NCBI RefSeq assembly: GCF_044704955.1
Contig: NC_091989.1
Coordinates: 8,990,001-9,054,000, forward strand
From: Pristiophorus japonicus
Taxonomy: Eukaryota
Reading direction: 5' to 3'
DNA: 64,000 bases
The stretch's first letter is position 1, and each line of letters opens with the position of its first letter. Below are positions 33,372 through 59,040 of the stretch, in pieces. Under the pieces are notes generated by a model. It saw nothing but the letters and a program-made list of their open reading frames with translations. It did not search any database and had not been told where the DNA came from. The position numbers were made by a program, and so were the translations under genes.

Positions 33372-34320
33372 TGTTATATATGCAGACTATAAATATACTC
33401 TCTGTATAGTCACTGTATAGTTGCATAAGATGGAGACTTGTTTACCTGATGTACTATCAATAAGGTTTACACTGTGTATGTACTAAGCTGGCACCACTAG
33501 AGGGTGCAACTGGTGGAGATCGGGGTTTCCTGCCCTGGTGGCAGGGGCTGTATAAAAGGGGAGCCACCATGCGGCAGCCTCACTCTGGAGTTACGAATAA
33601 AGGACCAAGGTCACTACAGTTTGAGAACAAAACATTGCCTCGTGGAATCATTCATAAGTACACTATAGACATAATAACTGGCGACAAGAATACGGACTTT
33701 CACGCGATTATGGCTACCTTTGGCACACTAAAAGACTTCGCAGAGGGTGATGATTTGGATGCTTTCACGGAAAGGTTCAAGCTATATTTCGTGGCAAACG
33801 ACCTGGCAGGGGAGACGGACACATCAGCGGAGAAGTGCAAGGCTATGCTGCTGACCAGTTGTGGGCCCAAGGTCTACCGCCTCGTCAGGGACTTACTGGC
33901 ACCCACTAAGGCCAAGGATAAGACAAACGATTAGCTGACTGAACTAATTCGCGACCAACTAAAACCAAAACAGAGCATCCTCACGGCCAGACACAGATTC
34001 TACACTCACCACGGACCTGAGGGCCAGGAGATTGCAAAATATGCTGCCGACCTCAGGAGACTTGCGGCACCGTGTGATTTTGGCATGCATCTCAACGAAG
34101 CATTGCGAGACATCTTCATTATAGGAATTGGCCACGAGGGCCTCCTTCACAAGCTATTATCTGCCGACACCACAGTCAACCTGCAGAAGGCCATCAGCAT
34201 CAGTCAGGTGTTCATGACCTCGACCTGCAGCACCAAGCAAATTATTCATCCTGTGGACTCAAACCCGGCAAGTCCTGTACACAGAATGGTGTCTTTCACA
34301 GGCAAGACTGTAGAACGTGG
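33372..34320 (+). mobile_element. Gypsy (Mag-like) retrotransposon: 5' LTR, PBS and decayed gag
   Basis: LTR 33372-~33677 (TGTTATA start, TATAAAA, AATAAA), PBS-like TGGCGACAAG at 33679, gag from ATG 33710 (MATFGTLKDF...DAFTERFKLYFVAND...LLTSCG...LRDIFIIGI) with a stop and a frameshift. Confidence 0.85.
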
Positions 34321-34584
34321 TTGTTCAGAGTGTTTGCTCGCTATCATCACCCAGCTATTCCCTATGTGGACTGTGGGGGGGCGGGGGGTGAGAATGTATG
34401 TATGTAGCCATGGACACACACGTGGATCACACCCAGTACCCACTGGAACCTCCACTGCATCATCGAACCATCCAAACTGGTAATCACTACCCAACGTTGT
34501 GGCAAAAGGACTTGGGGGTTAACAGGGAGAGAGCCAAGCCAAAGCACAGCCAAGGTTCAAAGAGCAGAACAGTGCTGACCCATC

Positions 34585-35780: not shown

Positions 35781-36039
35781 ATCAGTTGAGGTTTTACAAC
35801 AATCTACATAGTCACTTCTACTGATAGCTGCTTTTCATTTTTAAACTGAATTCAAATTCTCAAACATGATGCGATTTGAACTCACAATTAATTAGTCCAG
35901 GTCACCGGATTATCAGTCTAATAACATAACCACTACACTACACTACCACTCCTTACCACGTCACAGTTTGGTTCATTGCCTATAACTCGCAGCCAGGTTT
36001 GAGCCTTTTGAAGTGATTTGGTCTCTCTCTGCTTCTTTG

Positions 36040-36668
36040 CTAACTTGGCGACCCGACCCAGCATTCAGTGCAGCGGCCCGACCTGCAAGAACCATCAGCA
36101 GGTTGGGGCCTTCAAAGTAGCAGCGTGGAACATACCACTTCAAGGTACAGCGCGTGCTGGAGAGCGACGGCTGTGAAGAGGGTGAATGGATTAGACATCA
36201 CCAAGGTCCAGGTCGCTGATTGGAGCGTGGGCAGGTACAGCAGGAGTGGCGAGGTTGGGGCGAAGTTGGGGCGCAGGAACGGCGAGAGATTGCAGAGCAG
36301 TGTTATCGGGGCTCAGGGGAGGCATGAGTTCGGGGCTCAGAAGAGGCGAGGGCCCAGGGGCAGCACGGGCCCAGCCCACACTGCGATATGTGTGCGCACT
36401 AGGTCCGTGCAGCGGAGCTGGTCTCCTGTCGTCTTGGGTAACCCTTGCCACTGGACCAAGACCTCGCTCTGTCAAGCCCCGTGTGGTGGCTGGTGTGCAA
36501 CGGCCACCCCACATTAAAAAAATCCACCCACAGGCATCTTCCACCCTTCAACATGTAGTTCGGGATCTGGAATATTAGGTCGTTCATTGAAACACCTGTG
36601 AACTCATCCCTTTTTGGCGTGGAAGCAAGTCATCCTCGATACAAGGGAACGCCTATGATGATGATGAC
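36040..36668 (+). mobile_element. RTE-derived bipartite non-autonomous retroposon
   Basis: Putative 5' UTR, then ATG TAG TTC GGG ATC TGG AAT ATT AGG (M*FGIWNIR, like the RTE endonuclease start), then an RTE 3' tail matching 14226-14296. 5' boundary approximate. Confidence 0.75.
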
Positions 36669-37049
36669 TATTTGCAGTAGAAAGATAGATTCAAAGTGAT
36701 TGTACTGTCGTCCTTAACAGTATAGACTGTGTGAAGTGATCTTCAAATACATTTACATCCTAATTGAACTGTCCTTCCATCACTCACCTGTGTTCAGCAG
36801 CACTGTTTAATGACAAGGTAAACATGAAGTAATCAAGTATGACATCTTGACTTCAGGCACTGCGGAAAACAAAATTATCCACATTCATTTTGGGGGAGAA
36901 AAGACATGAGCATGTTACAATTTCAGGCCTATAATGAAAAGTGCAAATGGGAAAAACAGCATTTATAAGAAAAATTATATTTTGACATAAGACTGGAACA
37001 GCATGTCATCATTGAGCATTCATCGAATTGATAATGTTAGCACATCTGA

Positions 37050-37460
37050 AGAAAGAAGACTTGCATTTATATAGCACCTTTCACGACCATCGGATGTCTC
37101 AAAGCACTTTACAGCCAATGAAGAACTTTTGAAGTGTAGTCACTGTTGTAATGTGGGAAATACTGCAGACAGTTTGAGCACAGTAAGCTCCCACAAACAG
37201 CAATGTGATAATGACCCAGATAATCTGTTTTAGTGACGTTGATTGAGGGATAAATATTGGCCCCAGGACACCAGGGAGAACTCCCCTGCTTTTCTTCGAA
37301 ATAATGCCACGGGATCTTTTACGTCCACCCGAGAGAGCAGACGGGGGTCTCGGTTTAACGTCTCATCCAAAGGACGGCACCTCCGACAGTGCAGCGCTCC
37401 CTCAGCACTGCACTGGAGTGTCAGCCTGGATTTGTTTGTGCTCAAGTCCCTGGAATTGAA
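37050..37460 (-). mobile_element. SacSINE1-like SINE
   Basis: Homologous to 2588-3060. Confidence 0.85.
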
Positions 37461-37540
37461 ATCAATAGAGAGGGATTTCAGTCCCAACATGTTCAACCAG
37501 TTTGAGATTCAGATGCAAGTTCTTTCACGTGGATGCCAAG

Positions 37541-37738
37541 TGATAGAGAATTCAAACAGGCTGCATTTAGACAGGTTGAGAAAACACAGACTCCCATGTC
37601 TACGTGCAACTGAGCACATTGCATTAAGTCATCAATCAACATTGACATTTTAGGACCTTTGGGTAGCGAGCCAATTAAAGGTTAAAAGACTATCAAATGA
37701 GCCAATAAGGTCAAAGAAGGCGAGTTCTTTTCTGTAAA
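37541..37738 (+). repeat. 5' LTR, U3 part only
   Basis: Matches 43425-43621 with 3 substitutions and 1 indel, then joins directly to gag. Confidence 0.93.
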
Positions 37739-38318
37739 CACTGGCTGCAAGACAGACTGGGGAAAAATTGCAGCCTGCCAACAGAAAGGAACAGAGGAGG
37801 TCCTGGAGTATGACGAGCGGTTTAGATGCACGTGGCTAGAACATTCGGGTATGAATAATACGGATGAGGAAATGGATGAACAAGTGTTTGGACCCCTGAA
37901 AGCAGCTTTCGTGGCAGGTCTAAAGCCAGAACTGTCCAAAATGCTTAAGGTAGTGTTACCGGACTGGGAAGGTAGAGGAACTACCTTTGCAGCATTGGTG
38001 GATCGATGTGACCAATTAGATCGGGATATGGGAGCTAAAGTCCGAGCTGTACAGGCTATGGGATGGAAATCCCAGGATTCCGATAAACATTTATTCGGAA
38101 AATTACCCAGAAAATGTCATTATTGTGGGAAAGAAGTTCAATGGGCCAAGACGTGCAGGGCAAAACAGCAAGGTCGTGGCCGGGGAAGAGGACGCAGCCA
38201 GGGATACAATTCAGCCAACAAACCAGGCTTGTCACAAGATAACGACCTCATAGAAGCATTTAAGCGACTGACAATACAACAACAGAAGGAGTTACTTGGG
38301 ATAGCAAAAAACAATTAG
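37737..38318 (+). pseudogene. gag: ERV gag, 5'-truncated (CA C-terminal part and NC)
   Basis: Open frame upstream of ORF 37851 contains the major homology region CQQKGTEEVLEYDERF; degenerate zinc knuckle CHYCGKEVQWAKTC; RG-rich tract; TAG at 38316. Confidence 0.9.
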
Positions 38319-38392
38319 AGCCCACCCTGGCCCCCCTCCTCGCACTAATACAACAAAGGGGAGATGGGCTATATATAACTGTGAGGGTGGGC
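38306..38392 (+). other. Candidate -1 programmed ribosomal frameshift signal
   Basis: A_AAA_AAC at 38306-38312 in gag phase, 7-nt spacer, GCCCACCCT (38320-38328) complementary to AGGGTGGGC (38384-38392); protease lies in the -1 frame. Confidence 0.7.
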
Positions 38393-41300
38393 GATAAGGA
38401 TGTGGACTGTCTTTTAGACACAGGGGTGGAATTAACATGCTTACCCCTACAATATGGAGACTTTTTGCCGTTGGATGGTAGGGCACATACAGCCTATGGA
38501 GTTGGGGGCCATAAAATGGAAATTAAAAGGACAACACCGATACTTATAGGGCTGGGTCCACATGAACTAACCACGCCGGTCTGGATAGGCCCAGTAGATC
38601 AACCCCTTTTGGGAATGGACGTTCTAATCCAAGTAGATTCATCGTTGCATTTCGAGGATGGTCGGGTGACATGGTCAATTAGAACTTTGAAGAAAGAAGA
38701 ATTGAAGGAACACCCGATATGGGCTAAAGATAAGAACGATTGTGGCCTACTCCAGATTTACCGGGACCAAGCCTCCATGCACTAAACAGTATCCCATCAG
38801 TCCAACTGCCATCGCAGGAATCTTACCGGTTATTCAGCAATTGGAGAAACAAAGGGTGCTTATTAAAACGCATAACTCCTCCAATAGCCCCGTGTGGCCG
38901 GTACAGAAATCTAATAAGACTTGGCATTTGACTGTCGATTATAGGAAAGCTAACCAGTGTATTGATCAAAAAGCTCCTTTGGTCGCAGATCCCTCCACCA
39001 TTTTTAATGCCCTCAAACCGGAACATAAATATTTCTCGGTTATAGATATGGCCAACGGATTTTGGTCGGTGCCTCTGGCACCAGAGGTTCGACAGTGGTT
39101 TGCTTTCACGGTCCAAGGACAACAGTATACTTGGACCCGGTTGCCGCAGGGTTTCCACAACAACGCTATGGTATTTCACATGGCTTTACAAAGCCATTTG
39201 CGAGAATTACCTCCCTTGTCGTCCACAGTCATCCAATATGTAGACGATATCCTGCGAGCTTCAAACACGGAAGAACAGCATGAACAAGATTTATGAGCTT
39301 TGCTGGACCACCTTTGGCTGAAAGGACATAAAGCCAACATCGACAAAGCACAAATATCCCAAGAAGAGGTTGTATACCTGGAACAAAAGATTTCACAAGA
39401 AAAGAGAGAACTTACCCAGGATAGAACTGCAGCCATTCAGGCTGCTAAAAAAACCACCACTATTCAGGAACTAAGATCTTTTTTGGGATTGTGTAACTTT
39501 AACAGAAATTGGATTGACTCCTTCACACAGCTTGCTCAGCCATTGAATGATATTTTAAAGGTGAAACGTGCCTCTAAAGAAGCCATCACCCTCACTAAGG
39601 AACAGCAAGAGGCCTTCCTGAGTTTGAAAAAGGCTTTGTGTTCGGCACCGGCTCTGGGAATCTCCGACAGTGGTAAGCCATTTACCCTGTTTGTCCATGA
39701 GAAAGAAAGATATATGACAGCTATACTGACACATGAACATGGGGATCGGCAAAGACCTATTGGCTATTATTCGGCAAAACTCGATGCGGTAGCCCTCGGA
39801 TGGGGAAGTTGCCTAAGGGCCATGGAAGCTACATGTCGAGCGGTAATAATCACTGCGGGTCTAGTCCTCGACCAAAAGCTGATTGTCAAGTGTCCCCACA
39901 CCGTACATGCTTTGCTGTCTATGAATACAATGTCTCAGGTGACGGCAGCTAGATGGACCCGCTGGACAGCAGTTTTGGAAGCTCCTAATCTCCATATCGT
40001 CCGGGCCAGCCCGGTTAATCCCGCAACTATGCTCCCAATGTCAGAATCGAGGGAGCAAGAGGGGGGAGAATGTGAAGAGCATGACTGCGTGGAGATTTTA
40101 AAAGAAACAGAAGAAGCAGCCTTAGCAGCAGAGGAGCCTCTGCACAACCCAGACCTCATCCTGTTTACAGATGGTTCCTCCTTTATTGACAATGGTACCA
40201 GAAAAGCAGGATGGGCAGTTACAACCTTATATGAGGTAGTGGTAAAAGGATGTTTACCCTCAGGAACGTCAGCACAACAGGCCAAGTTACGGGCCCTGTC
40301 AGAAGTATGTCGAATAGCAGAAGGACAGACAGCTAATGTCTACACAGATTCGCGTTATGTTTTTGGAGTCGCTCACGACTTTGGTCTGTTATGGCGGAAA
40401 AGAGGATTCCTCACTGCTGCTGGTACACCGATCTGAAATGGAAAAGAAGTCCGAGACTTACTAGAGGCCATACAATTACCTCAGGAAGTGTCCATCCTGA
40501 AGTGCAAGGCCCATACCAAGGAAAATATCACAGAAGCACAGGGAAATGCCTTAGCCGACCAGGCAGCTAAAGATGCCGCCTCACAGGGCGTTCCTCCAGA
40601 AGAACCAACACAGATGTGCAGATTGAAAGCACTCAGGACTCTGACTCGAGACCTTCAAACAATGCAAGTGCTCCCAAGAGGAAAAATGGACATGGATTGA
40701 GGCAGGAATTAAGCTATGTGAAGATGGTGTCTGGAGACAAAGAGTTACCGACAAGCCAGTCGCGCCACAAGCGCTTATGCCTTTTTTAGCCCAACAGATC
40801 CACTCGTGGGGACACTTGGCCTCACAACAGATGACAGCACAGTTCCAGAAAAGCTGGTGGGGTCGGGGATTTAAAAAACATGCCCAGCTGGTAGCAGACC
40901 GCTGTGTGGTCTGCCAGAAAAATAATTCTGGACCCATCACGGTAATGCCCCAACTGAGGCCCCCTGCCCCTATCGGACCATTCCAGCATCTGCAGGTTGA
41001 TTATATATCTCTTCCTTCATGCCAAGGACACACTAACATTCTTGTCATGGTCGACAGATTCTCTAGATGGGTAGAAGCTGTCCCAACTAAAAGAGCCACA
41101 GCCAATCACACTGCAAAGGTCTTGTGGAAGGATTACATTCCCCGATGGGGAGTCCCGAGTAGCATTGACTCAGATCAGGGAACACACTTCACAGGTTCTG
41201 TCTGCCAAGAAGTCTGTAGGTTACTGAACATTACGTGGGATTTACACTGTCCTTATCATCCACAATCATCAGGACAAGTAGAACGAATGAATCGAACTCT

Positions 41301-41772
41301 GAAACAACAGCTTGCCAAATATCACCAAGAAGGAACACCATGGCCCGAGGCACTACCAATAGTGCTATGTAGCATTAGGGCAACCCCAAACAGAACTACA
41401 GGTCTAAGCCCATTTGAAATTATAACAGGAAGACCCATGTCGCTGCCAGAAACTATCGATTTACGGAAAGCTGATGTTCACTGAATGAGTGACGCTTTGT
41501 TATCATACTGTCAGAACCTAACCAATGCTATTAGTTCTGTTTCCCAACAGGTATCGGCAGCTTGGGGTAATCCACCCGAAGGAGGACACGACATCATCCC
41601 GGGAGTCTGGGTGTATGTGAAAAAGTTGCATAAAGAACCTTTGGGTGCCAAGTGGGAGGGACCTTATCAAGTGTTATTGACCACCCAGGCAGCTGTTAAA
41701 GTCCAAGGAAAGAAAGCCTGGATCCACGCTTCACACGTTAAACGAGCACCCGTAACTGAAGCTGAAATCTAA
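38306..41772 (+). pseudogene. pol: ERV pro-pol (protease, RT, RNase H, integrase), disrupted
   Basis: LLDTG; WPVQK...VDYRKAN; RLPQGF; YVDD; FTDGSS, YTDSRY, KCKAH; HSWGH...CVVC, DSDQG, VERMN, WEGPY. Stops at 39294, 40434 and 41482; frameshifts near 38755 and 40665. Confidence 0.95.
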
Positions 41773-41796
41773 TAAGGACAATTATTTTTTGCCAAA

Positions 41797-43176
41797 ATGT
41801 ATAAATTTACTGTATTCCTGACTGTAGGTATTCTAGGCATAGGCCTACTTCTTACTAGCCGACCCTCTGCACCAAATGGAAATAGTAGGGTAGCAAGGTA
41901 ATTACATGTAAATACCTTTTTATATATGTCATACATTTATGCCAAACAAGGTAACATTTCTAGTTGTTGGGTGTGTACGCATATTCCTATTCACTCAAAG
42001 GGAGGGATTCCCTTGAGGCCAGTTCCCTTGAATATCTCGGAAATGGCTGAGTGGATAATTTATCAAAACAAAACAGGCAAGGCATTTCAGGATAAGGAAA
42101 ACTGGGCACGTAAATGGAAGTCAGCAGGTTACAATCTGACTACCTTTGAAGGGGGATACTAACCGTGCTACAATAATTCCAAACGGCCCCCATTTTTTGT
42201 TATCACTAATACAACGGGAATAGGAAGACCAAGGGAATCGGTCTGTCTGATTAGAAACATCAAAGGAGGCCAAAATATGGTGTATAGTAATTGCTCCCGG
42301 AATTATAATATAATCAAGCCACGGAACCGTCCAAACTGAGCCGATGTGGGAATTTTTAACGTAACGGGGATTCTGAATAAAACAGATGGAAAAACCTGGA
42401 CAGGCCCTGGAGTGTTGCTGACAAAGAAACAGCTAACATTCATTGCCTATAATGGCACCTATTGGCTGTGTGACCACAAGGCCTACCCTTGGCTGCCCCA
42501 GAATTGGACGGGATCCTGCTATTTAGCCTACATTGTGCCTTATATGTATCATATAAAGTCACTGTCGGAACATTTACACCGTCCTAAGAGCGCTATCACA
42601 GAAACAGAGAGGTTCGTTGCCATTCTGATCCCCAGGTATGGGACCGCCAGACTGGCAAGGGAATCCATCAACATGGCATCCGTTGTGGAACGGGTAGCCA
42701 ATGATACCTCAGAGGCCCTAGTTAAAATCAATGCAGAAATGGTAGCAATCCGCACAGTAACCCTACAGAATAGACTGGCCCTTGGTTACATCCTGGCTGA
42801 AAAGGGAGATACTTGCGCCCTACTCAGAACTGAGTGTTGCACGTATATCCGAGATAGCTCCGAAGAAATGACCCACTTAGCGGAGCATATCCAAAAGGAG
42901 GTAGAAAAACTTAAGCAACTCCCATCATTCACTTTGTGGAGCGGTGCCACTGAATGGCTAGGTTCAATAGGAACTTCATTGGTGGAAGGTTTAATTTTAT
43001 TTGTTGTAATTATTTTACTTTTATATTGTTTGTTTATGTTGATTAAATGTTGTTGCGACCAGGCGGCTGTAGCTGCTGTCCCGCAGGTGAGACACCTTGC
43101 AGGTCCCAGCAGACCGTCTGTACGTGGCACAGGGGTATGTTATGCTTCATGGAAGGTTGTTTACTGGTTGAACTAA
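41797..43176 (+). pseudogene. env: ERV env, gamma-type, single frame with three premature stops
   Basis: ATG 41797 with hydrophobic signal peptide, SU CWVC (CXXC), mutated furin site HRPKS/AI, immunosuppressive domain LQNRLALGYILAEKG, CX6CC (CALLRTECC), TM helix. Confidence 0.93.
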
Positions 43177-43424
43177 AATATTGATTTGGATTAAATTGGA
43201 ATAAGGTTAATTAACCTACTAAAACCAGACTTCCATTGTGGCCACGATGGAACTCGGGTTGGTGTAAATTTGTGTGGAAGCTACTAGTCCGGACATGTGG
43301 CGAAACACATCAACAAATTTTAGAAGGAAACTCTATTAACATGTATGAAATTATTTTGTAGAATGTTTAACCAGTGATACCTGATGTTTTATGATTCAGT
43401 TTGTGAAAGAATCAAAGGGGGGAT

Positions 43425-43775
43425 TGATAGAGAATTCAAACAGGCTGCATTTAGACAGATTGAGAAAACACAGACTCCCATGTCTACGTGTGACTGAGCA
43501 CATTGCATTAAGTCATCAATCAACTTGACATTTTAGGACCTTTGGGTAGCGAGCCAATTAAAGGTTAAAAGACTATCAAATGAGCCAATAAGGTCAAAGA
43601 AGGCGAGTTCTTTTCTGTAAATTGAACCAGGTATAAGTACAGCCATTTTGACCATGTAGTCTCAGAAGGACAAAGGCCTGGCTTAAAGCCAGAAGCTTGT
43701 TGCTGCTGCCAAAATAAAGTTACATTAAAACTACAACCGGAGTTCGTATTTCATTGGAAATTAAGAGATCTAACA
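43425..43775 (+). repeat. 3' LTR, complete (351 bp)
   Basis: TGATAG...CTAACA; two GAGCCAAT boxes, TATAA at 43632, AATAAA at 43713. Confidence 0.95.
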
Positions 43776-43881
43776 CCAAGAATGCTGAAGCCTGTCAAGA
43801 ATGCGTTTGAACTCAGGCACTCCGGCGACCTTTCGAAATGAAGCAGAAGTCTCAGGATCACTCCTTGGAGGCAACGGCTGC

Positions 43882-44274
43882 CCTCTCCTCCCATGGCCCA
43901 CGATTCCACTGTAAGAGCCACCAAAGACTAACCTCTCCTCCCATGGCCCACGATTCCACTGTAAGGGCCACCAAAGACTATCCTCTTCTCCCATGGCCCA
44001 CGATTCCACTGTAAGGGCCACCAAAGACTATCCTCTCCTCCCATGGCCCACGATTCCACTGTAAGGGTCACCAAAGACTAACCTCCCCTCCCATGGCCCG
44101 CGATTCCACTGTAAGGGCCACCAAAGGCTCACCTCTCCTCCCATGGCCCACGATTCTACTGTAAGGGCCATCAAAGACTATCCTCTCCTCCCATGGCCCA
44201 CGATTCCACTGTAAGGGCCACCAAAGACTAACCTCTCCTCCCATGGCCCACGATTCCACTGTAAGGGCCACCAA
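43882..44274. repeat. Minisatellite, 50-bp unit, ~8 copies
   Basis: CCTCTCCTCCCATGGCCCACGATTCCACTGTAAGGGCCACCAAAGACTA(A/T) at exact 50-bp period. Confidence 0.95.
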
Positions 44275-44409
44275 TGCAGTAGGAGAGGGACACAATGAAG
44301 CTGAGCTGTGGCCAAGAGTTCTCTTTGAGTAAGCAACAGGAATGGTCAAAACAAGGTTAAAATGCCAGGATTAGTCGGGGGTGGGGTGGGGGGTGCAGAG
44401 GGTTATTCA

Positions 44410-44770
44410 GGTACGGTGGTGTAGTGGTTATGTTACTGGACTAGTAATCCAGAGAACATGAATTCATAATCCCACCACGGCCATTTGAGAATTTGAATTC
44501 AGTTTAAGAAATCTGGAAATAAAATCGGCTTTTTTGGTCAATCAGCTAAAGCTGTTGGATGGTCATAAAAGTCCACCTGGTTCACTGATGTCCTTTAGGG
44601 AAGGAAATCTGCCGTCCTTACCCGGTCTGGGCCTATATGTGACTCCAGTCCCCCACCAACGTGGTCGCCTCTTAACTGCCCCCTGAAATGGCCCAGTTGA
44701 CCTTCTCAGGGCAACTAGGGACCGGCAATAAATGTTGGTCTTGCCAACGAGTCCCACATCCCGAGAATGA
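44410..44770 (+). mobile_element. tRNA-headed SINE (second family)
   Basis: GGTGTAGTGGTTATGTTACTGGACTAGTAATCCAG head; body and tail homologous to 17546-18085 and 49432-49800. Confidence 0.75.
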
Positions 44771-46385: not shown

Positions 46386-46388
46386 TCA

Positions 46389-49300
46389 CAAGAACATAAG
46401 AAATAGGAACAGGAGTAGGCCATACGGCCCTCGAGCCTGCTCCACCATTCAATAAGATCATGGCTGATCTGATCATGGACTCAGCTCCACTTCCCTGCCT
46501 GCTTTATTCCCTTATCGCTTAGAAATCTGCTCATCTCTGCCTTAAATATATTCAATGACGCAGCCTCCACAGCTCTCTGAGGCAGCGAATTCCACAGATT
46601 TACAACCCTCTGAGAGAAGAAATTTCTCCTCATCTCAGTTTTAAATGGGCGGCCCCTTAACCTGAGACTATCCCCTTTTTTAGTTTCCCCTATGAGTGGA
46701 AATATCCTCTCTGCAACCACCTTTTCAAGCCCCCTCATTATCTTATATATTTCGATAAGATCACCTCTCATTCTTCTGAACTCCAATGTGTCTAGGCCCA
46801 ACCTACTCAACCTATCTTCATAAGTCAACCCCCTCATCTCCAGAATCAACCTAGTGAACCTTCTCTGAACAGTCCCCAATGCAAGTATATCCTTCCTTAA
46901 ATACGAAGACCAAAACTGTACGCAGTACTCCAGGTGTGGCCTCACCAATACCCTGTACAGTTGTAGCAGGACTTCTCTGCTTTTATACTCTATCCCCCTT
47001 GCAATAAAGGCCAAGATTCCATTTGCCTTTTTGATTACTTGCTGTACCTGCATACTAACTTTTTGTGTTTCATGCACAAGGACCCCAGGTCCCGCTGCAC
47101 TGCAACACTTTGCAATTTTTCTTCATTTAAATTATATTCCTATTATTTCAGCCAAAGTGGATAACCTCACATTTTCCCACATTATGCTCCATCTGCCAAA
47201 TTTTTGCCCACTCACTTATCCTGTCTATATCCCTTTGCAGATTGTTTGTGTCCTCCTAATTTGCTTTCCCACCCATCTTTGTATCATCAGCAAACTTGGC
47301 TACATTACACTCGATCCCTTCATCCAATTCATTAATATAGATTGAAAATAGTTGAGGACCCAGCACCGATCCCTGCGGCATCCCATTAGTCACTGTTTGC
47401 CAACCGGAAAATGACCCATTTATTCCGACTCTCTGTTTTCTCTCAGTTAACCAGTCCTCTATCCATGCTAACATATTACCCCCAACCCCCTGAGCTTTTA
47501 TCTTGTGCATTAACCTTTTATGTGGCACCTATCTTATCGAATGTCTTCTGGAAATCCAAATACATCACATCTACTGGTTCTCCCTTATCCACCCTATTCG
47601 TTACTTCCTCAAAAAACTCCATCAAATTTGTCAAACATGATTTTCCTTTCATAAAACCATGCTGACTCTGCTTGATTGAATCATGCTTTTCCAAATGTCC
47701 CGCTACTGCTTCTTTAATAATGGACTCCAGCATTTTCCCAACGACAGATGTTAGGCTAACTGGTCTATAGTTTCCTGCTTTTTGTTTGCCTCCATTTTTA
47801 AATAGGGGCGTTACATTTACGGTTTTCCAAACCGCTGGGACCGCCCCAGAATCCAGGGAATTTTGGTAGACTACAACCAATGCATCCACTATCTCTGCAA
47901 CCACTTCTCTTAAGACCCTAGGATGAAGCCATCAGGTCCAGGGGACTTGTCCGCCTTTAGTCCCATTTCAACTAATACTACTTCATTAGTGACAGTGATT
48001 GTATTAAGTTCCTACCTCCCTATAGTCCCTTGATTATCCACTATTGGGATGGTTTTAGTGTCTTCCACCGTGAAGACCGATACAAAATATTTGTTCAGTG
48101 TCTCTGCCATTTCCCTGTTCTCCATTATTAATTCCCCAGTCTCATCCTCCAGGGCGCCAACATTTACTTTAGCCACTCTTTTCCTTTTTATGTAATTGTA
48201 GAAACCCTTACTATCTGTTTTTACATTTTGTGATAGTTTACTTTCATAATCTATTTTCCCTTTCTTAATAATTTTTTTAGTCGTTCTTTGCTGGCTTTTA
48301 AAAATTTTCCAATCCTCTGGCCTGCCACTAATCTTGGCCACATTGTATGCCTTTGTTTTCAATTTTACACCATCCCTTATTTCCTTAGTTAGCCACAGAT
48401 GGTTATCCCTTCTCTTACAGACTTTCCTTCTCATTGGGATATATTTTTGTTGCGAGTTATGAAATATCTCTTTAAATGTCTGCCACTGCTCATCAACCGT
48501 CCCACACTTTAGTCTATTTTCCCAGTCCACTTTAACCAACTCTGCCCTCATACCTTTGTAGTTTCCTTTATTTAAGCTTCGGACCCTGGTTTGAGAACCA
48601 GCTTTCTCACCCTCCAACTGAATTTGAAATGTAACCATATTATGGCCACTCATTCCTAGAGGATCCTTTACTAAGAGATCATTTATTAATCCTGTCTCAT
48701 TACGCAGTACTAGATCTAAGATAGCCTGCTCCCTGGTTGGTTACACAATGTACTGCTTAAGGAAACGATCCCAGATACACTCTACGAACTCCTCCTCAAG
48801 ACTACCTTGGCCAATTTGCTTTGTCCAATCAACATGAAGGTTAAAATCGCCCATGATTATTGCCGTTCCTTTATTACAAGCCTCCATTAGTTCTTGATTT
48901 ATACTCTGTCCAACAGTGTAGTTACTGTTAGGGGGCCTATAGACTACGCCCACCAGTGACTTTTTCCCCACATTATTCCTTATCTCCACCCAAACTGATT
49001 CAACATCTTGATCTTCTGAGCCAATATCGTTTCTCACTAACGCACTGATCTTATCCTTTATTAACAGAGCTACCCCACCTCCTTTTCCTTTCTGTCTGTC
49101 CTTCCGAATTGTCAAATACCCCTGAATATTTAGTTCCCAGCCTTGGTCACCTTGCAACCATCTCTGTAGCGGCTATCAGATCGTACCCATTTGTATCTAT
49201 TTGTGCCGTCAACTTATCAATTTTGTTACAAATGCTATGTGCATTCAGATAAAGAGCTTTTAAATTTGTTTTCTTACCATTTTTTCTTGCTTGTTTCTTC

Positions 49301-55202: not shown

Positions 55203-57113
55203 CTAAGACCGCCCGCTGCGCTTGGTCTTGTTGACTCCAGCGCTGCCCGCAGGCAGTGACGCAGCATTTCTTGGGTTGGTACCAAGGTTATTCTTTCGAA
55301 CATCTCGGGTAATGCGCACTTCTTGATGGGGGGGTAGAGGGAGGGGCAGGCGGTGATGTGGAAGGCCTGGCTTGAGCCTCATCAGAGGCTAGTCTGGGGA
55401 TTGGAGTGGGAGTGACGGTTGATTCTGTCAATAGGCGCGGGGTCTGGGCGTGTTCCCTTATTGCAGCAGCTAACTCCGACATTCCCTCCCTCATGTGCCC
55501 TGACTGTGTGTCAACTACCTGCGACAATCCCTCCCTCATGTTCACCGACAGTGTCTCAACTACCTGCGACATTCCCTCCCTCATGTTCACCGACAGTGTC
55601 TCAACTACCTGCGACATTCCCTCCCTCATGTTCACCAACAGTGTCTCAACTACCTGCGACATTCCCTCCCTCATGTTCACCAACAGTGTCTCAACTACCT
55701 ACGACATTCCCTCCCTCATGTTCACCAACAGTGTCTCAACTACCTGCGACATTCCCTCCCTCATGTTCATCGACATTGTATCCGCTGCCTGAGACATTCC
55801 CTCCCTCATGTTCACCGACAGTGTCTCAGCCACCTGCGACATTCCCTCCCTCATGTTCCTGGACAGTGTTCCCATTTCTCGTGAGAGTGTTGTTGCTTCT
55901 CCCGACAGTCCCGATACCTCATCACCCACCCCACTGATGGTGTCCAGGAGTGATCGTGTAAGGTCAATGCTCTCCACACTCATTGCCATCATCTGAACCA
56001 CATCTGTTAGATCCTGCACCTCAGGAGAGCGCTGTCAAGCTCTCCTTCCCCTCCTCACCCTGGGTGTGCCTCGCTACATCCCACTGGGACCCACAGCCTC
56101 GGACTGTGGAAAACCATGTAATGTCCCAGCAACACTCGTACCACTCAGGAAAGGGGCTGGCACCTCAATGGGCGGCACCTGCACTTCCTCCAGAGTGAGT
56201 ACAACTTCATCCAACACCTCCCCCTCCCCCTCACCCCCATGCTTTTGATCTGGAAGGTGGGATTGGAAGATGTTCTCCTTATGGCTTGTCCGCATCGGAA
56301 TCTTCTTCTGCATCGTCAGGTTTGGCCTCAAGTTCTGCAAAATATATCAGAACAGACAAATGGTTAGCAGCAGAGGAGGGGGCAGGGTGGGTGGCATGAG
56401 TAGGCTCACACAGCGCAGGCCGCAGGCTCAGTTGAAGGACCACAATGAATGATAGCACATTGTATCAACCGAAGCGTAGCTGACGGAGACATTCCCATGA
56501 ACCGAAGCTTGGCTAGCCCACGCAGTACTTAACATTTAGCATAGCCAGACTGTGGAATTTGCAGGACTTACCCTCTTCCTCGAGTGTGGGCCCAGCTTGT
56601 GCTGCGGTGGTTGCTTTTCTCCAGGCAGGACCCATCAAAGCAACGACCCTGTCTTCCAAGCGTGTCAGTGGCTGCAGATTTGCCGGGCCTCCTCCTGTTC
56701 GAGTTCTTTCCCTTTTGTTGTGTGTCATGTTCCTCTGCAACGATGAAAATATAGCTTTTTAGAGAGGGTGTCTTTCTGCTGGGTGGGACATATACAGCTG
56801 GTCACATTTACAATTGCAATTCCAGTGAATAAATGAAACTATTACTTACACTAACTACTTGACCAAGGTCCTGCCACTTCTTTTTGCACTGGCCTCCAGA
56901 CCTCGGGGTGGTCACCATTGCATAGTAATCTTCTACAAGTTGGTTCCAGCGTTTCTTCATTTCTTTTGGTAAAACTTTTATGTGACTTCTGCTGGTGTCC
57001 AGCTCGTGCCATCTGGCCTCAATCACAGTAACCGGTGCCTCCACTTCATCCTGTGAGAAATTCTTGGTCCTTGAGCCGTATTGTATCTTGTATTGCAGCT
57101 CCGATTTCTCCAA
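55203..57113 (-). pseudogene. Harbinger Myb/SANT-like DNA-binding protein, three exons, decayed
   Basis: Exon 1 57113-56850 (NFSQDEVE...W...RSGGQCKKKWQDL), GTAAGT donor; exon 2 56734-56572 (KRERTRTGGGP) after TTGCAG; exon 3 from 56334 (acidic tract, then repeats), with stops and frameshifts. Confidence 0.8.
55470..55870 (-). repeat. Coding tandem repeat, 45-bp unit, 9 copies
   Basis: GACATTCCCTCCCTCATG recurs every 45 bp; encodes NMREGMSQVVETLSV on the minus strand. Confidence 0.95.
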
Positions 57114-57922
57114 TGAGAATTAAAGTTCTCACACACAACTGGCTCTTTAAATATGGCCGAATGCAGACCGAGAGGTGTACTGGGCACGCGCGCCCATAGC
57201 AATCACGTCAAAAGCGTCTTTTTTTGTTTTCGCGCACGCGCAGCAGGGGGAGGCACCGTTTAGTTTCGGCGCAGACATTAGGCTCCACCCCCCGAAGTTA
57301 AAGGACGGGCTGCATGGCGCCAATTTCAAAAAATTGAATGGGGAAACTTGCGAGTTATTTTTTTGGAATAGTCGGGGCCAGAAAAAAACAGATGTAACTC
57401 TTGAAGTACGCCAAAGACATGGCATTGGAGAGAATTGAGCCCGGGGTTCCTGCTCCTGTCTGATGTTGCACAAAATGACTGTGTTGGGTGGGAAAAACAG
57501 ACTCACAAAATGGCTGACGTTTGCATTGGATGGGATGGGGGAGGTGGGGAGACTCGCAAAATGGCTGTTACCCTGCGTCTCCACTCGCATGTAATTATTC
57601 TCTCTGCATGATTATTTGTGCTGGTCAACTTCCCCTTTAAGATGCACGTGTTTAAGTTGTCGCAGTCTGATCTTAATACCAGATAAGATTGTTTTCTTCT
57701 TCAGCAGAAAAGGCACAGTTTATCTCTCCACAGCTGTCCCGTGTTGCAACAGTTAACCCTTAGTGTACTTGGTTTTTGGTGCTGCATCGATTTTCTAACC
57801 TGGGACGTCTGCCAAAGGAACAGTTGCCAAGACTGAAACGCAGCATTATTGTAAAATAGAGTTTGAAAAATGATAAGACAACGTCACTTTGTTAATGTAA
57901 CGTATTTATGCTATGGTGTTCA

Positions 57923-59040
57923 ATGTCAGCCGTGGCTCAGTGGGCAGCACTCTCGCCTCGGAGTCAGAAGGTTGTGGGTTCAAGTCCCACTCCAGGGACT
58001 TGAACACAACAATCTCGGCTGACACTGCAGTGCAGTGCTGAGGGAGTGCCGCACTGTCGGAGGGGCAGTGCTGAGGGAGCGCCGCACTGTCGGAGGGGCA
58101 GTGCTGAGGGAGCGCCGCACTGTCGGAGGGGCAGTACTGAGGGAGCGCCGCACTGTCGGAGGGGCAGTACTGAGGGAGCGCCGCACTGTCGGAGGGGCAG
58201 TACTGAGGGAGTGCCGCACTGTCGGAGGGGCAGTACTGAGGGAGTGCCGCACTGTCGGAGGGGCAGTACTGAGGGAGTGCCGCACTGAGGGAGCGCCGCA
58301 CTGTCGGAGGGGCAGTACTGAGGGAGCACCGCACTGTCGGAGGGGCAGTGCTGAGGGAGTGCCGCACTGTCGGAGGGGCAGTGCTGAGGGAGTGCCACAC
58401 TGTCGGAGGGGCAGTACTGAGGGAGTGCCGCACTGTCGGAGGGGCAGGACTGAGGGAGTGCCGCACTGTCGGAGGGGCAGTACTGAGGGAGTGCCGCACT
58501 GTCAGAGGAGCAGTACTGAGGGAGTGACGTACTGTCGGAGGGGCAGTGCTGAGGGAGTGACGTACTGTCGGAGGGGCAGTGCTGAGGGAGTGCCGCACTG
58601 TCGGAGGGGCAGTACTGAGGGAGTGCCGCACTGTCGGAGGGGCAGTACTGAGGGAGTGCCGCACTGTCGGAGGTGCAGTGCTGAGGGAGTGCCGCACTGT
58701 CGGAGGGGCAGTACTGAGGGAGTGCCGCACTGTCGGAGCTGCCGTCTGCCCCCTCAGGTCAATGTAAAAGAATCCGAAGCACTATATCGAAGAAAAGCAG
58801 CGAGAATTCTCCCCCTGGTGCCCTGGCCAATATTTATCCTTCAATCAACCATTTCACTAAAACAGATGATCTGGTTATTATCACATTGCTGTTTGTGGGA
58901 GCTTGCTGTGCTCAAACAGACTGCTGCGTTTCCTCCAGAACAACAGTGATTATACTTCAAAAGATATTTCATTCGCTGTAAAGCGTTTTGGAAATTCTTA
59001 GGTTGTGAAAGGCGCTATAGAAATGCAGTCTTTCTTTTTT
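57923..59040 (+). mobile_element. SacSINE1-like SINE with internal minisatellite expansion
   Basis: Head 57923-58034 and body/tail 58738-59040 are collinear with 54247-54702. Confidence 0.9.
58035..58737. repeat. Minisatellite, 33-bp unit, ~21 copies
   Basis: GT(A/G)CTGAGGGAGTGCCGCACTGTCGGAGGGGCA, with one shortened unit near 58280. Confidence 0.95.

Follow-up and report, generated by a model that had tools for sequence, protein, structure and literature searches.

Reviews treat the recoding mode of a retrovirus as a genus marker, with stop-codon readthrough in gammaretroviruses, epsilonretroviruses and the sampled fish retroviruses, and frameshifting in alpha-, beta-, delta- and lentiviruses (PMC13517186, PMC3835772; statements from the literature refer throughout to the available parts of each paper). 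Readthrough is likewise given for salmon swimbladder sarcoma virus (SSSV), zebrafish endogenous retrovirus (ZFERV), RMEV and snakehead retrovirus (SnRV) (PMC13517186). The heptamer AAAAAAC followed by a 7-nt spacer is listed for mouse mammary tumour virus (MMTV), intracisternal A particle (IAP), bovine leukaemia virus (BLV), human T-cell leukaemia virus type II (HTLV-II) and bovine immunodeficiency virus (BIV) (PMC3835772). Among class I chains of the human genome, which are decayed sequences, pro is offset from gag by 0 in 1128, by -1 in 380 and by +1 in 295 (PMC4724089). An in-frame stop also serves a class III endogenous retrovirus (ERV) of a frog whose env is of class I (PMC8278194); readthrough therefore occurs outside class I as well, and the change could have run in either direction. 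Here, we analysed a 64,000-nt stretch of the genome of the shark Pristiophorus japonicus (contig NC_091989.1, positions 8,990,001 to 9,054,000; hereafter the window), which carries a dead provirus (37541-43775) with a gamma-type env and with pro in the -1 frame relative to gag. We consider it very probable that this is a native -1 frameshift layout and a real feature of the family.

The sequence-only reading of this locus had named two precedents for such a junction. The first, AAAAAAC as the slippery site of MMTV and HTLV, is borne out, the heptamer being tabulated with a 7-nt spacer for MMTV and HTLV-II (PMC3835772). The second, SSSV as a fish retrovirus that frameshifts, is not supported, as section 4.1.2 of the review gives UGA readthrough (PMC13517186). 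A gag-pro frameshift in a fish class-I-like ERV was not encountered in the available text of PMC4422223, PMC6001957, PMC10699275, PMC8672886, PMC5210030, PMC12067270, PMC12690878, PMC5009743 or bioRxiv 10.1101/2021.11.23.469661. A published description of such a lineage with a -1 gag-pro layout was not found in the literature searched, which took in few subscription journals and had Repbase and Dfam outside its scope.

In the window copy, gag ends GCA AAA AAC AAT TAG (38304-38318), and the heptamer A_AAA_AAC (38306-38312, plus strand) stands in X_XXY_YYZ phase of the open reading frame (ORF) 37701-38318. The 7-nt spacer (38313-38319), which contains the gag stop codon (38316-38318), and the full pairing of the 9-nt arm 38320-38328 with 38384-38392 were confirmed as proposed. 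The -1 frame (38264-38785, plus strand) stays open across the heptamer and continues as a retroviral protease (Pfam RVP, E 1e-5; catalytic DTG at 38417-38425) and has no Met ahead of the catalytic Asp, while readthrough of the TAG meets nine sense codons and then TAA. The junction thus brings together what marks programmed -1 ribosomal frameshifting: an in-phase heptamer, an overlapping -1 ORF without its own start and a predicted stable structure 7 nt downstream. A search of Rfam over 36000-44500 returned two matches at E 5-8, none of them at the junction.

The same frames would be seen if a readthrough virus had acquired a 1-nt indel, whether private to this copy or inherited from a defective master amplified in trans. 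The window copy is badly decayed, and its junction is bordered by runs of A and of C. To be set against this is the constancy of the layout across the genome, where 127 loci yielded 114 distinct copies (13 were dropped as duplicates or identical), each compared singly with the window and all at least 94.9% identical. No net indel separates the codon before the heptamer from the protease Asp in 108 of the 114, which speaks against the 1-nt indel that had been named as one possible refutation of the frameshift; the six remaining copies represent 5 different events. The heptamer keeps its XXXYYYZ form in 110 copies and the gag stop is kept in 108. Frame 0 is blocked in 112 copies, the -1 frame is open from the heptamer to D-x-G in 95, and the protease frame of 111 is free of Met ahead of Asp. 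Measured from the zinc knuckle of Gag, pro lies in the -1 frame in 90 copies, in +1 in 17 and in frame in 3, with 4 not reaching it. Indels between the knuckle and Asp are of 29 types (27 seen once, 2 seen twice), and the 5 types that fall between the heptamer and Asp are in keeping with an origin by decay.

It should be noted that the choice of loci favours indel-free copies, as 30 came from a DNA query and 27 from protein queries reaching into or near the junction. A junction indel was absent from 63 of the 70 loci for which the protease query began downstream of the heptamer. Moreover, a contig of depth 92, which comes from a different study and carries the label of a different organism, spans 38266-38737 with no gaps, so that the layout is common to two organism labels. 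Four foreign protease queries of the genome, as a search for diverged subfamilies, gave the same family only (L061-L100 checked, 95-98%).

Relatives in other species carry the same overlap. The nearest proteases are from sharks (Heterodontus 73%, Chiloscyllium 55%, Rhincodon and Scyliorhinus) and the nearest full Pols are from bony fishes. In a zebrafish-type family with ~50% reverse transcriptase (RT) identity to the window, five of five Gag-only proteins end in E-K-N, an ending that had been predicted from the other frame before inspection. Two proteins of this family read G-K-K-L ahead of the protease, in a stretch that corresponds to the Gag tail translated in the -1 frame; the -1 match extends to 13 of 15 residues in one (1/5000 shuffles as good) and 7 of 8 in the other (13/5000), and the +1 match is at chance. 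Because E-K-N is read in one frame and G-K-K-L in the -1 frame, the genetic code forces A_AAA_AA(C/U). The distance from the knuckle to the Asn of the heptamer is 66 codons in the window and in the zebrafish-type family alike. Up to K-K, the Heterodontus model P0118 agrees with the -1 frame of the window in 7 of 12 residues (37/5000 shuffles), and K-K or F-K stands 37-40 residues ahead of Asp in the window and in 7/7 relatives tested. In Astyanax, F-F-K-L occurs at the same distance, with which a U-rich heptamer is compatible without being forced (protein only). A single founder cannot explain the same -1 overlap in Heterodontus and zebrafish-type relatives. Decay or a founder artefact is thus largely refuted, and we regard it as very improbable: the -1 layout of gag and pro is very probably native.

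Two further observations concern relatives. A zebrafish-type family of the same clade (cluster of P0170) has 3937 members in NCBI records, a second large expansion. A teleost-type relative at L101:2690-7676, 82% identical to the cod-like family, has lost an internal part, so that the N-terminus of Gag continues in frame into the RT connection, ribonuclease H (RNase H) and integrase as one ORF of 1049 codons; a gamma-type env of 427 codons comes next and shares 27% identity with the window env.

A native layout with pro in another frame could also be read without recoding, if splicing yielded an RNA of its own for Pro-Pol, equipped with a start codon, the heptamer being incidental. In foamy viruses, pol lies in a different frame from gag and is started separately (PMC8278194), and some of the relatives carry a Met shortly before the protease Asp. 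In the family itself, 111 of the 114 copies lack such a Met in the protease frame. Its Gag has a CCHC knuckle, unlike that of foamy viruses, and its RT connection and RNase H are far nearer murine leukaemia virus (MLV; E 1e-75) than foamy virus (E 5e-15). The slippery dipeptide also keeps a fixed distance across lineages. We give this explanation hardly any weight, and frameshifting at the heptamer remains the preferred reading.

The genome of P. japonicus also provided a control. With a frog epsilon-like protease as query, 25 loci of other class I families were retrieved, of which 7 lacked one motif. Knuckle and DTG lie in one frame in 16 of the 18 scorable loci, 14 of which have exactly one stop. 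Therefore, the genome holds both layouts, the window family being the odd one. A second class I family with the readthrough layout (that of L145) has many matches of equal score and equal open-frame length and looks younger than the window family.

In the replicating virus, most ribosomes would have ended Gag at the UAG two codons past the heptamer. The stem-loop 7 nt downstream would have paused a minority, which would have slipped one base back on A_AAA_AAC, with tRNA-Lys and tRNA-Asn in tandem, and Gag-Pro-Pol would have been produced by a single -1 frameshift. One shift would suffice because pro and pol share a frame, as seen in the copies, where frames of up to 1158 codons run open across the protease, and from single Pro-Pol ORFs in the relatives. 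From established knowledge, we infer both the slippage itself and the part of the stem-loop as its stimulator.

The putative stimulator (38320-38392, plus strand) is a nested stem-loop in the computed fold, with a 9-bp outer stem (38320-38328/38384-38392) and inner stems of 5 bp (38329-38333/38366-38370) and 6 bp (38336-38341/38358-38363). The fold of 38313-38400 has an energy of -37.2 kcal/mol (z -3.5, 0/200 shuffles as good), the lowest among 256 segments of 88 nt across the element, with the junction segment placed by hand and the other 255 on a grid. Frameshifting may be real and have another driver, such as a pseudoknot of alternative or long-loop form, the stop codon close by or slippage of the polymerase along the A run. 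Covariation, which had been proposed as a check of the stem-loop, was not seen in the 114 copies, which are 95-100% alike; C-rich and G-rich tracts permit other registers, and a long-loop pseudoknot can be drawn at the junction. On the other side, the outer stem is part of the predicted fold in 113 of 114 copies, and its distance from the heptamer is the canonical 7 nt. Pseudoknot enumeration did not uphold the pseudoknot option raised earlier: no compact H-type pseudoknot was found, and the only coaxial second stem found is 5 bp long and mostly G-U. Another driver is unlikely in our view, though appreciably more credible than either decay or a spliced Pro-Pol RNA, and the stem-loop is retained as the candidate stimulator.

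Several observations weigh against a frameshift signal at this junction. Its z is not the lowest in the element (-2.7 with 25 shuffles, at least 8 segments being lower), and the fold is partly a GC effect. Column diversity in the 114 copies is 0.039-0.040 in the stems, 0.036 in the loops and 0.027-0.037 in the flanks; the stems are no lower, and these copies gave no signal of selection on the stem. Such flat diversity over stems, loops and flanks is expected because copies decay after insertion. A second AAAAAAC lies at 40870-40879 of the window, in the F-K-K-H codons of integrase, and is followed by a fold of -32 kcal/mol (z ~-4). It sits in XXX_YYY phase of the pol frame, which makes it a non-canonical -1 site. 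Motif and fold can thus arise without function, because this integrase site has both in the wrong phase. Furthermore, 3 of the 114 copies have gag and pro in frame, via private indels, and three database proteins have Gag fused in frame to Pro, a point that decay could also claim. The fusion is exactly at K-K in P0251 (a zebrafish RefSeq model) and P0123 (a whale shark model), and a few residues earlier in P0173. These fused models resemble the frameshift product and may be annotation fixes or carry private indels. Finally, the cross-species case rests on proteins and not on junction DNA. Searches for DNA of distant junctions gave nothing or only gypsy-like elements at 24-29% in viral contigs, one gypsy-like contig only in prokaryote genomes, and one relative, with its junction deleted, in metagenomes. 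The case for frameshifting rests on the frame overlap and not on the motif plus the fold.

To place the element, a tree was computed from RT and connection (55 rows, 429 columns, gypsy root) by a quick IQ-TREE run, with support from the Shimodaira-Hasegawa-like approximate likelihood ratio test (SH-aLRT) only. P0002, P0013 and P0146 were left out as short, and two gypsy loci gave no match. The row labels 'gamma-like' and 'epsilon-like' are our own, from host names and Pfam, and the rows include no sequence of walleye dermal sarcoma virus (WDSV), SSSV, ZFERV, SnRV, class II or lokiretroviruses. The window falls within a 12-row shark/gar/teleost clade (SH-aLRT 99), sister to a 32-row gamma- plus epsilon-like clade (100) that includes the readthrough families of the same genome; the two are joined at 99. 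The RT core alone likewise puts the window outside the gamma- and epsilon-like rows. Members of the window clade include the carp-like P0003, Coilia P0006, Alosa P0007, cod-like P0008, Astyanax P0009, gar P0130, zebrafish P0251 and Heterodontus P0118. These relatives are 49-64% identical to the window in RT plus connection and are annotated only as hypothetical, NYNRIN-like or Gag-Pol. A lineage containing Mustelus (P0247, P0244, P0176, P0177) branches just outside both the window clade and class I. An atlas search returned only generic RT/RNase H clusters.

The element had been called a class I-like ERV of a shark lineage, and each half of this description holds in part. A gamma-type env and pro and pol in one frame agree with class I; the sister position of Pol to the gamma- and epsilon-like rows and the 5-bp target-site duplication do not. 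The nearest protease relatives are from sharks, but the clade and its -1 layout reach bony fishes. The lineage therefore appears, on the sequences compared, to be class-I-adjacent, with a Pol sister to gamma- and epsilon-like ERVs in a tree without named reference viruses, and the -1 trait appears to mark a shark/gar/teleost lineage. Tentatively, and with somewhat less than an even chance of being right, we propose an unnamed genus-level shark/gar/teleost lineage, sister to all gamma- and epsilonretroviruses, that would express Pol via a single -1 frameshift 66 codons after the knuckle.

It may be that an 'epsilon-related' entry in an existing catalogue already covers this clade. The clades Pol-LE.1 and Pol-LE.2, defined in bioRxiv 10.1101/2021.11.23.469661, could include it, in which case only the classification would change: the family would be a deep branch of epsilon-related class I ERVs (clade Mu; Pol-LE.1/LE.2) that switched to frameshifting. 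Clade Mu spans nearly all jawed vertebrates, and epsilon-related fish ERVs with a gamma-type env are described in the available text. In a fold search with the Pol of a relative, WDSV was the nearest named virus at 32%; gammaretroviral Pols were at 29-30% and class II at 15-19%, values of little weight given the poor model (predicted local distance difference test score 48.8). Opposed to this classification is the tree itself, with the window clade (99) outside the gamma- and epsilon-like group (100). Joining the window clade to the epsilon-like rows was rejected by the approximately unbiased test (p-AU 0.002), for groups named after the tree was seen. We put this classification close to an even chance; the frameshift layout would be the same under either name.

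Other assignments were tried and rejected. A gammaretrovirus would have a 4-bp target-site duplication (4 nt in PMC5210030), and the family has 5 bp in 3 of the 4 insertions inspected, the boundaries of the fourth being ill-set. The strict class I layout, with gag and pro in one frame and a stop between, is not that of the window family. A class II (beta- or delta-like) element would have a second, pro-pol frameshift, which the shared frame of pro and pol excludes. A foamy-like ERV is contradicted by the Gag knuckle and by the lack of Met before Asp. Lokiretroviruses have an env unlike the gamma type and a Pol outside all other retroviruses. A lokiretrovirus or BHIKHARI assignment was set aside for an env that matches TLV_coat and a Pol nearer class I than foamy virus, in a tree without lokiretroviruses.

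The provirus is flanked by a 5-bp target-site duplication (left 37536-37540, identical in its letters to the right 43776-43780). Of its 5' long terminal repeat (LTR) only the 5' part is left (37541-37738, plus strand), 98.0% identical over 198 nt to 43425-43621 in the 3' LTR. Comparison with longer copies revealed an internal deletion of ~1.4 kb, from the middle of the 5' LTR to the middle of gag, by which the remainder of the LTR, the primer-binding site and the 5' part of gag were lost. The 3' part of gag (37749-38318, plus strand) includes a single CCHC zinc knuckle (38115-38156, plus strand), damaged in this copy, whose pattern is present in 91 of 109 copies covering the region. This part of gag is 24-34% identical to Gags of teleost relatives and has no match in Pfam. 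A frame break near 38760 splits pro from RT. The pol gene (38766-41770, plus strand) encodes RT (YVDD), tether, RNase H and integrase (Pfam RVT_1, RT_RNaseH, RNase_H, Integrase_H2C2 and rve), and is followed by env (41799-43176, plus strand) with a gamma-type transmembrane subunit and a broken surface subunit. TLV_coat matches 42340-43173 (E 1e-14), and ORF 42340-43176 has an immunosuppressive-domain-like stretch and CX6CC. Both pol and env contain stops and frame breaks. A polypurine tract (43410-43424, plus strand) precedes the 3' LTR (TG...CA; 43425-43775, plus strand), which adjoins the right duplication. The family is young, with LTR pairs 94.5-98.1% identical in 5/5 insertions compared, and large: a DNA query gave 2154 candidates (40 scored) and a protease query 5160 (150 scored), totals that are not copy numbers.

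Around the provirus, tandem arrays occupy 43822-44321 (50 nt), 55422-55916 (45 nt) and 57900-58838 (33 nt), the first starting ~50 nt to the right of the 3' LTR; insertions L177 and L179 of the family likewise lie inside tandem arrays. On the minus strand, 46387-48303 holds pieces of a repeated element resembling a long interspersed nuclear element, also present beside other insertions, which we take from its motifs to be of CR1 type. A tRNA-like stretch at 44415-44483, possibly the head of a short interspersed nuclear element, had only an Rfam match at E 5.2 and was not found by ARAGORN. At 33464-34483, two in-frame ORFs are split by a stop; they presumably resemble a retrotransposon Gag, and the second has no Pfam match.

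A frameshifting, class-I-adjacent lineage with a gamma-type env would break the pairing of recoding mode and genus. The coexistence of both layouts in one genome, together with the contrast between sister groups, bears on how a virus changes its recoding mode while keeping its Gag:Pol ratio. If the sister-lineage reading is true, the switch between frameshift and readthrough maps to the base of class I, and the zebrafish family is a living model. The family also adds a large natural set of putative fish frameshift signals, and its junction accounts for the way in which these ORFs come out of gene prediction either split or fused. What is unusual is the position on the retroviral tree, the mechanism itself being textbook.

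Compared with known systems, the junction is closest to those of MMTV, IAP, BLV, HTLV-II and BIV, with which it shares A_AAA_AAC, a 7-nt spacer and a GC-rich structure. However, beta- and deltaretroviruses shift twice, at gag-pro and at pro-pol, whereas pro and pol are in one frame in the window family; the predicted stimulator of the window is a 73-nt nested stem-loop and not a compact pseudoknot, and Pol and env appear unrelated to those of class II at the level tested. The gamma- and epsilonretroviruses (Moloney MLV, WDSV) resemble the window in their gamma-type env, single CCHC knuckle and Pro-RT-tether-RNase H-integrase in one frame, and they provide the nearest named Pols. They read through an in-frame stop, whereas pro is in the -1 frame in the window and its Pol appears sister to the group, and gammaretroviruses duplicate 4 bp of target against 5 bp here. 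SSSV, ZFERV, snakehead retrovirus and XtERV-S have aquatic hosts like the window element but are reported with an in-frame gag-pol stop; XtERV-S has a class I env together with a Pol from outside class I, a combination that the window element appears to share. The Pol-LE.1/LE.2 ERVs are similar in their fish or cartilaginous-fish hosts, gamma-type env and lack of accessory genes, a likeness to the window clade by description only, and the word frameshift is absent from the main text of the paper that defines them, as far as that text was available.

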